Translations under genes and position numbers: made by a program
In this document: positions 37,110-38,471 of the stretch, in pieces
Layout: every line of letters starts with the position of its first letter
Numbering within the stretch: the stretch's first letter is position 1
Assembly: GCF_056746865.1 (NCBI RefSeq)
Contig: NZ_CM163382.1
DNA: 64,000 nucleotides
Reading direction: 5' to 3' (one strand)
Notes under the pieces: generated by a model
What the model saw: only the letters and a program-made list of their open reading frames with translations
Databases searched by the model: none
What the model was told of the DNA's origin: nothing

Positions 37110-38471
37110 TTAATCTTTACGCGGGTCGTTGATCGGCTGACGAACCAGGAAGATGTACGCCAGTGCTCCCGCTGCGGTGACGCAACCGCAGATGATTAGT
37201 GCCAGACGGAATGAGTGGGTGGTATCAACAATAAAACCAGTAATGATCGGCGCAAAAGAGGCGCAGATGAAGCTGGCAAAGTTCTGGATACTGCCCACCG
37301 ACGCCGTCATGCGAGAAGCAACTGCGACGTGGATCAAGCCCCAGCAGGATGTTCCGGCAAAGTGAATACAGAACAGTGCCATGCCAATCAGCAGAACCGC
37401 CGTCATGGATGTTGTCGCTTGCGGTACGACCAGCGTAAAGGCGGCAGAACAGAACATCCCGGCAATAATGCAGATCTTACGGCTTTTAATCGGAGCCATT
37501 CCCCCTTTGACCAGCCAGTCAGTAACGTAACCGTTGACCAGCATCCCGGCAGCCCCAAACAGGAAAGGGATAGCCGCCATCAACCCTGTGCTTTTTAAAT
37601 CCAGGTTATAGGCTGTTTGCAGGTAACCAGGAAGCTAGGCCAGATACAGCCACGCAGTGTAGTTGATGCCACTGAATCCGAGCATCATTCCCCACATTGT
37701 GCGGTTACGGAACAGGCTGCGCCATTCGGCAAAACTGAGCGGATCTCGGCGGGCATTGACGCTACCTGCATTGAGATAAGCTTGTTCAACGGCAGTCAGT
37801 TCTACGTGCTCGCGGTTGCGATAGAGCATATACCAGCCAATGGCGAGAAAAATCCCCAGCACACCAATGGTAATAAACATCCCATGCCAGCCCATCACCA
37901 GCATCATCGCCGCCAGAATCGGTGGGCTTACGGCAACGCCAATGGTAGAAGCTGCGTTGAAGAAGCCCATCGGGCGTCCGCGCTCTTTGATGTTGAACCA
38001 GTCGTTAATGACTTTTACGCCACATGGGTTCATCGGCGCTTCACCAATCCCCATACCGATACGCACCAACACGAACTGCGTAAAGCTGTGCACCATGCCA
38101 GACATGGCCTGGAACAGTGACCAGAAGAACATCCCCAGTCCCAGCATCAGGCGTGGGCCTTTACGATCCAATAGTGGGCCGCAAGGAAGTTGCGCAATCC
38201 CGTAAGCGAGTGAAAACACGGAGAGCAAAGCGCCGATTTCGGTGGCACTTAATCCCAATTCTTCACGAATCGTTAAATTTGCTACCGACAGCGAACTGCG
38301 GTCGAGATAATTGATTACCGCCGCAAAAAATAATAACAACATGGCGGTGGTTTGAATGCGTTTAATTCGGGTACTGCGTTGAACTAATCCATCTGGTGGC
38401 ACGGGAATATCTGCCGACGAAGATGGAGTAAATGAAGAACGCGGATCGAGGGTGATATTTTCTTTTTCCAC
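37110..38471 (-). pseudogene. lgoT: lgoT (yjiZ), MFS L-galactonate transporter, interrupted by a single in-frame amber codon
   Basis: Track ORFs 37635..38471 and 37110..37583 are in the same frame; the only interruption is TAG (plus-strand cta at 37635-37637); segments sum to the 453-aa full length I recall. Confidence 0.75.

Follow-up and report, generated by a model that had tools for sequence, protein, structure and literature searches.

Lineage-fixed amber codon in the L-galactonate transporter gene lgoT of Escherichia coli ST69 and its likely origin at a Dcm methylation site

The stretch of DNA analyzed here (the window) comprises 64,000 nucleotides (nt) of contig NZ_CM163382.1 from the NCBI RefSeq assembly GCF_056746865.1, and all coordinates given below are positions within it. 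It contains the lgo locus in the gene order of Escherichia coli, tsr / lgoT / lgoR / lgoD / opgB, with the hpa operon upstream of tsr. The gene lgoT (yjjL), which belongs to an L-galactonate:H+ transporter from the major facilitator superfamily (MFS; ACS family), is located on the minus strand at 37110..38471, between tsr and lgoR-lgoD-opgB and thus at the position orthologous to that in strain K-12. Read on the minus strand, the gene runs ...TGG CTG TAT CTG GCC TAG CTT CCT GGT..., and the TAG at 37637-37635 breaks it at codon 279, while the whole frame of 1362 nt is kept. In the list of open reading frames (ORFs), it consequently appears as a 278-amino-acid (aa) ORF (38471..37635) followed by a 157-aa ORF that extends from a TTG at 37583 to 37110. 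A previous sequence-only reading had described lgoT as split by this single in-frame amber codon and otherwise continuous, which both the minus-strand read and an alignment to K-12 without indels confirm; its count of 278 + 1 + 17 + 157 = 453 codons is likewise reproduced by the ORF list. The same reading considered lgoR and lgoD as intact, and this holds true as well. The GntR-family regulator of L-galactonate catabolism encoded by lgoR (38686..39600, minus strand) comprises 304 aa, differs from its K-12 counterpart in a single residue (H140Q) and is annotated as intact in identical genomes. The L-galactonate oxidoreductase encoded by lgoD (39739..40761, plus strand; true start 39739) comprises 340 aa and is identical to the K-12 protein WP_000106030.1. 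The 214 nt between lgoR and lgoT are also identical to those of K-12.

To identify the replaced codon, the sequence-only reading had proposed an alignment with lgoT of K-12. Both the gene of the window and that of K-12 MG1655 are 1362 nt in length and align with 0 indels and 19 nt differences, corresponding to 98.6% nt identity. Twelve of these differences are synonymous, and four residues are exchanged (I8L, N129S, R196H, and I348V). The sole disabling change is found in codon 279, where TGG (Trp) became TAG by a G>A exchange at nt 836 of the gene (window 37636), so that the premature amber codon that replaces Trp279 occupies 37635..37637 on the minus strand. The assignment of 37110..38471 as an lgoT pseudogene is based on colinearity with K-12, on the MFS_1 domain of the repaired protein and on the label 'lgoT, MFS transporter, internal stop' given by the NCBI annotation pipeline PGAP. 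In all four inspected genomes of the TAG-carrying set, PGAP labels lgoT as 'pseudo, internal stop'. The lgoT amber allele is an ordinary lineage-fixed pseudogene that is already annotated in RefSeq.

The distribution of the allele was analyzed in 5426 complete E. coli genomes from RefSeq and in contigs from NCBI, ENA, and Logan. A 61-mer centred on codon 279 was found with TAG as an exact match in 52 complete genomes and with TGG in 4219, and the TAG at this codon is confined to about 1% of the collection. The entire gene is 100% identical over 1362 nt in 51 complete genomes. Carriers were isolated on several continents, with humans, dogs, poultry, and water as sources. All five carriers with published typing belong to sequence type 69 (ST69), namely EC6868 (according to the paper title), EF5-18-41, SCU-313, SCU-482, and MS14387, the last of which is of serotype O17:H18. 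If compared to EC6868, the window differs by one single nucleotide polymorphism in 38.9 kb, aside from an IS5 element in EC6868. Such a distribution also bears on the trivial explanation that the true codon is TGG and that the TAG stems from a sequencing or assembly error. Single-base errors do happen in assemblies; however, 52 complete genomes that were sequenced independently and originate from several continents and hosts share this base. In addition, at least 1000 contigs in the public data of NCBI, ENA, and Logan contain the exact 278-aa product (e.g., AQV68080.1), and the chance of an error is thus practically negligible. The downstream ORF of 156 aa is called as a separate gene, again on at least 1000 contigs (e.g., AQV68081.1). 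Taken together, a clonal lineage with global distribution is fixed for the lgoT amber allele, and all of its members with published typing are ST69 (phylogroup D). The allele can be used as a clean single-base marker of the ST69 haplotype at lgoT.

If codon 279 is repaired, the resulting LgoT protein matches MFS_1 over residues 47-408 (E=2.7e-61). Its best NCBIfam match is TIGR00893 with 267 bits, which is below the 395-bit cut-off of this family, and its closest solved relative is DgoT (6E9N; E=1.6e-53). In the alignment to DgoT, W279 coincides with a conserved Trp within the motif L(A/T)W(L/F)P(G/N)YL. A simple hydropathy scan of LgoT did not resolve transmembrane helix (TM) 7, to which residue 279 was instead assigned by means of its alignment with DgoT, its coordinates in the MFS_1 profile and the preprint on the LgoT structure. 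The N-terminal fragment of 278 aa (37635..38471, minus strand) spans positions 1-215 of the 347 positions of the MFS_1 profile. Based on the ORF list and this profile, it comprises the N-terminal six-helix bundle, the cytoplasmic linker and most of TM7. The C-terminal remnant (37110..37583, minus strand; ORF list) is 157 aa in length if started from TTG, or 156 aa if started from ATG (codon 298), and corresponds to TM8-12. With 27.9 bits it scores below the 33.4-bit cut-off of MFS_1. Consequently, the window lacks an uninterrupted lgoT ORF with 12 TMs and harbors a pseudogene of the LgoT family rather than a working member.

The crystal structure of LgoT shows two bundles, TM1-6 and TM7-12, with the substrate site between them (2026 preprint). 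Translation of the amber allele would end near the end of TM7, and the end of TM7 together with all of TM8-12, i.e., nearly the whole C-terminal six-helix bundle, would be lost. Such a 12-TM symporter could then not form a substrate cavity between its two bundles, and from the sequence we infer that the LgoT product of ST69 is non-functional. In K-12, the Keio delta-lgoT mutant does not grow on L-galactonate (2026 preprint), so that LgoT is the sole L-galactonate transporter of this strain. Therefore, ST69 strains are predicted from their sequence to be L-galactonate-negative and unable to grow on this compound, despite intact lgoR and lgoD genes. K-12 LgoT (YjjL, P39398), an L-galactonate:H+ symporter of the ACS family, shares locus order and length with the gene of the window and differs by four aa substitutions besides the stop. 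However, K-12 requires its functional LgoT to grow on L-galactonate, whereas the ST69 gene can give rise to no more than the N-terminal bundle plus the larger part of TM7. The practical value of the finding is small; the predicted L-galactonate-negative phenotype could be used in metabolic models of ST69.

One might argue that ST69 retains partial function, either by basal near-cognate readthrough of the UAG, or since the fragments of 278 aa and 156/157 aa could assemble as a split permease. UAG followed by C, as found here, is a weak termination context, and behind the stop the reading frame stays intact. Furthermore, the ATG of codon 298 is preceded by an AGGG motif, and split MFS permeases are able to complement if they are cut in loops, as is known from work on LacY. 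However, the cut in LgoT is located at the end of TM7, inside a helix and not in a loop. Residues 279-296 (restart at TTG) or 279-297 (restart at ATG) would be absent from both fragments. The AGGG, which is the sole such motif in front of ATG298, resembles only a weak Shine-Dalgarno sequence and is just 3 nt away from the start codon. In addition, EC6868 carries an IS5 between lgoR and lgoT, and another lineage (locus L015) shows an extra stop at E70 besides a frameshift allele. Such further decay suggests that no selection maintains lgoT, and altogether we consider residual function to be very unlikely. With respect to the IS5 of EC6868, the element is inserted at window position ~38735-38738, between the 3' end of lgoR and lgoT (locus L005, 17733-18929), and reduces the annotated length of lgoR to 894 nt. 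One member of the clone thus shows further decay of the lgo locus.

Another explanation put forward by the sequence-only reading was that the TAG might be read through in an amber-suppressor background, leaving lgoT functional. In its favor, the frame after the stop is undamaged, although this is expected of a young mutation as well. Five groups of tRNA genes are a single mutation away from the CUA anticodon: Gln(CUG) glnV/glnX, Tyr(GUA) tyrT/tyrV, Ser(CGA) serU, Leu(CAA) leuX, and Trp(CCA) trpT. The K-12 genes were changed to the anticodon CTA, and the exact alleles were sought in the 5426 complete genomes. The Gln CUA allele (supE) was found in 155 genomes, and the best 25 of these 155 are all K-12 laboratory strains (C600, DH5alpha, DH1, J53). 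Since this search recovered laboratory strains of K-12, it serves as a positive control and demonstrates that the method works. In contrast, a CUA allele of tyrT/tyrV was found in 0 genomes, with a tyrU-derived allele lying outside the search, and likewise 0 genomes contained a CUA allele of trpT or a full-length one of leuX. The serU CUA allele was detected in 1 of the 5426 genomes, strain DSM 498. Consequently, no ST69 genome carries a one-step CUA allele of tyrT/V, serU, leuX, or trpT. The glnV and glnX genes were inspected in one ST69 genome, strain 118UI, in which both anticodons are CTG, while that of serU is CGA; all three are thus wild type. Within the window, the only tRNAs are three Leu(CAG) genes, and TAG serves as normal stop codon in 2 of the 34 neighboring genes, which is the usual rate of E. 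coli. Recoding would in turn need a TAG that is conserved at codon 279 across diverged relatives, while it occurs in only ~1% of the genomes. In the light of these results, the suppressor proposal does not hold, and we regard a functional lgoT that depends on an amber-suppressor tRNA as extremely improbable. As a side observation, the gln-met-leu tRNA cluster of 118UI (locus L012, 810633-811228) contains three tRNA-Gln genes (two CTG, one TTG) compared to four in K-12, with either glnU or glnW missing.

The sequence-only reading had further suspected a recent nonsense mutation. If codon 279 is repaired to TGG, lgoT is 100% identical to the gene of 27 other complete genomes. This intact TGG haplotype is found in ECONIH1 as well as in MS6198 and FUJ80154, which are both published as ST648; MS6198 is listed as phylogroup F. 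From 17110 to 55989 (~39 kb), the window matches MS6198 at every position except for the G>A exchange at 37636, which makes the stop the youngest substitution of this tract. Thus, a recent origin is supported, while the mutation turned out to be clone-wide rather than private to the isolate. Beyond 55989, the window diverges sharply from MS6198, with about 100 differing positions in the next 2.3 kb and a break near 55989-58306 (yjjU/yjjV). In view of these comparisons, ST69 (phylogroup D) and ST648 (phylogroup F) may owe the shared tract to a recent import by recombination or to a common donor. The near-identical tract might extend further to the left of 17110 and spans hsdR-mrr-hpa-tsr-lgo-dnaCT-leuVPQ-prfC-osmY.

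The otherwise identical ST648 haplotype retains the ancestral CCTGG at codon 279, which is a target site of the cytosine methylase Dcm. Positions 37635..37639 are consequently a former Dcm site: the plus strand presently has CTAGG, which is what deamination turns C(5mC)AGG (5mC, 5-methylcytosine) into, while the ancestral sequence was CCAGG on the plus and CCTGG on the minus strand. The chemistry of 5mC deamination at Dcm sites and its repair by Vsr have been described (PMC2715241). In the proposed mechanism, Dcm would have methylated the inner C of the CCTGG contained in the ancestral GCC TGG on both strands. The inner 5mC of the non-coding strand, paired with the middle G of TGG, would then have deaminated to T, giving CTAGG on the plus and TAG on the coding strand. 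In total, lgoT contains five CCWGG sites, and only 2 of its 125 possible nonsense substitutions fall on a Dcm-methylated C: Q121 (CAG>TAG) and W279 (TGG>TAG). The CCAGG site over codon 121 (CAG), found by a site scan at 38108..38112 on the minus strand, is intact in the window, while other loci show that this codon is amber (TAG) in other lineages. Both dcm and vsr are annotated as intact in 118UI, the one ST69 genome that was checked.

A hotspot model predicts that such mutations recur, and recurrence was indeed found at both codons. In strain 135 (chicken, China), whose haplotype shows 72 differences in 6 kb, codon 279 is TAG as well, and further W279 TAG alleles were detected at loci L021, L023, and L024. 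Strain 135 and these loci represent haplotypes that are 12-16 nt apart from the window. At least four haplotypes carry the Q121 TAG (CCAGG>CTAGG; gene nt 361 C>T), and these extend from one that is 4 nt off the window to one that is 1 nt off K-12. The Q121 amber loci (L025-L028 and L032-L034) lie on unrelated haplotypes, and some of them stem from assemblies labelled as Shigella flexneri. Based on the sequence context, the recurrence of the change and the intact dcm of an ST69 genome, deamination of 5mC at the Dcm site is the most likely origin of the W279 TAG.

Alternatively, the TAG might have arisen once and then moved by homologous recombination, with the Dcm hotspot being irrelevant to its spread. 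The region does recombine, as ST69 and ST648 share at least 39 kb that are identical except for one base. However, the closest flanking positions at which strain 135 differs are only 52 nt (downstream) and 203 nt (upstream) away from the TAG, and the TAG is found on several haplotypes that are 12-16 nt apart. Furthermore, Q121, which is the only other site in lgoT where Dcm could give rise to an amber codon, is hit on multiple haplotypes too. This is predicted by a hotspot but not by a single transferred allele, and we thus consider a single origin followed by transfer to be unlikely.

Taken together, it is highly probable that lgoT in the window is a true nonsense pseudogene of the LgoT family that is fixed in ST69 and that most likely originated by deamination of 5mC at a Dcm site. 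Several points nevertheless weigh against this conclusion. The sequence type was confirmed from papers for only 5 of the 51 carrier genomes. One lineage (locus L022) has a TGA at codon 279, which is a non-Dcm position, so that not every change of W279 is driven by Dcm. The recurrence could in principle also stem from very short recombination patches, as the tract shared with strain 135 is 255 nt at most. In addition, basal readthrough of the UAG could leave a trace of full-length LgoT, and our literature search found no report on the phenotype of ST69 on L-galactonate.

The principle of Dcm-driven stops is textbook knowledge, while our literature search found no paper on their recurrence in lgoT. 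Amber hotspots in lacI reportedly occur at CCAGG (Coulondre et al. in 1978 are said to have described them), and a 2018 article by Cherry in J Bacteriol is said to belong to the same context of 5mC deamination hotspots at Dcm (CCWGG) sites. The lgoT allele resembles the lacI case in many ways: CCWGG is changed to CTWGG, the exchange is G:C>A:T at the presumably methylated C, the product is an amber codon, and the change recurs on independent backgrounds. In contrast to laboratory mutational spectra of Dcm, the lgoT allele stems from natural populations and is fixed in a pandemic clone. Both positions of lgoT that are open to Dcm-driven stops have repeatedly been hit in nature, which illustrates how methylation hotspots bias the formation of pseudogenes.

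One apparent further case was rejected. A 278-aa 'fragment' (P0048) on the I8/N129/R196 background, which equals K-12 over 836 nt, was considered as another W279 stop, but the respective contigs simply end at ...CCTG. Many short-read contigs from Logan (L029-L031) stop exactly at ...GCCTG within codon 279, probably since the assembly graph breaks at the polymorphic, repeated CCTGG stretch. Such contig ends yield spurious 278-aa 'proteins' in databases.

Besides the amber codons, lgoT is disabled by other means as well. The segment CCTGGTTACCTG (37620..37631, minus strand) comprises a second Dcm site and a direct repeat of 4 nt (CCTG...CCTG). This segment, which was recognized from the sequence and from other loci, has remained intact in the window. 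In other lineages (loci L013-L015), an 8-bp duplication, CCTGGTTA, between the CCTG direct repeats frameshifts lgoT. This duplication begins 4 nt after the position of the ST69 stop. Eight complete genomes, among them MS 85-1 and O111:H8 TW05614, contain the allele as an exact full-length match, and 439 contigs carry its C-terminal fragment. At L015, the E70 stop (TAA) mentioned above comes on top of this frameshift allele. A match to lgoT is absent from about 907 of the 5426 complete E. coli genomes. In a pangenome preprint, lgoT was found to be repeatedly gained and lost and never to occur together with a gene set of TRAP transporter and nhaK (bioRxiv 10.1101/2023.03.20.533463). BL21(DE3) carries a frameshift in lgoR and does not grow on L-galactonate (PMC6150544). 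Both examples resemble ST69, as they concern lineage-specific defects of this very pathway. However, unlike in BL21(DE3), a point nonsense mutation hits the transporter in ST69, while regulator and dehydrogenase are intact. In the contigs L029 and L031, lgoR is split into 97 + 207 aa, which is reminiscent of the lgoR frameshift of BL21(DE3).

One might speculate that the loss of L-galactonate uptake is positively selected in some host-associated or extraintestinal lineages. Codons 121 and 279 with their Dcm hotspots, together with the neighboring 8-bp slippage site, would then act as high-rate off-switches on which selection draws time and again, and the ST69 amber would be adaptive instead of a neutral hitch-hiker. 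If true, the amber allele would represent one adaptive step in the emergence of a pandemic clone. However, this idea appears rather doubtful to us at this stage.

Two further features of the locus are worth mentioning. A hairpin that resembles an intrinsic terminator (37073..37102, minus strand), with an 11-bp stem followed by a run of T, directly adjoins the stop codon of lgoT and lies between this gene and the convergent tsr. The adjacent tsr gene (35397-37061) varies in length, above all around ~36868-36889 and in the Gln run near the C-terminus: it encodes 554 aa with a run of seven Gln in the window, compared to 551 aa in K-12. In FDAARGOS_497, which is otherwise 100% identical, tsr lacks 33 nt in frame and thus encodes 543 aa.
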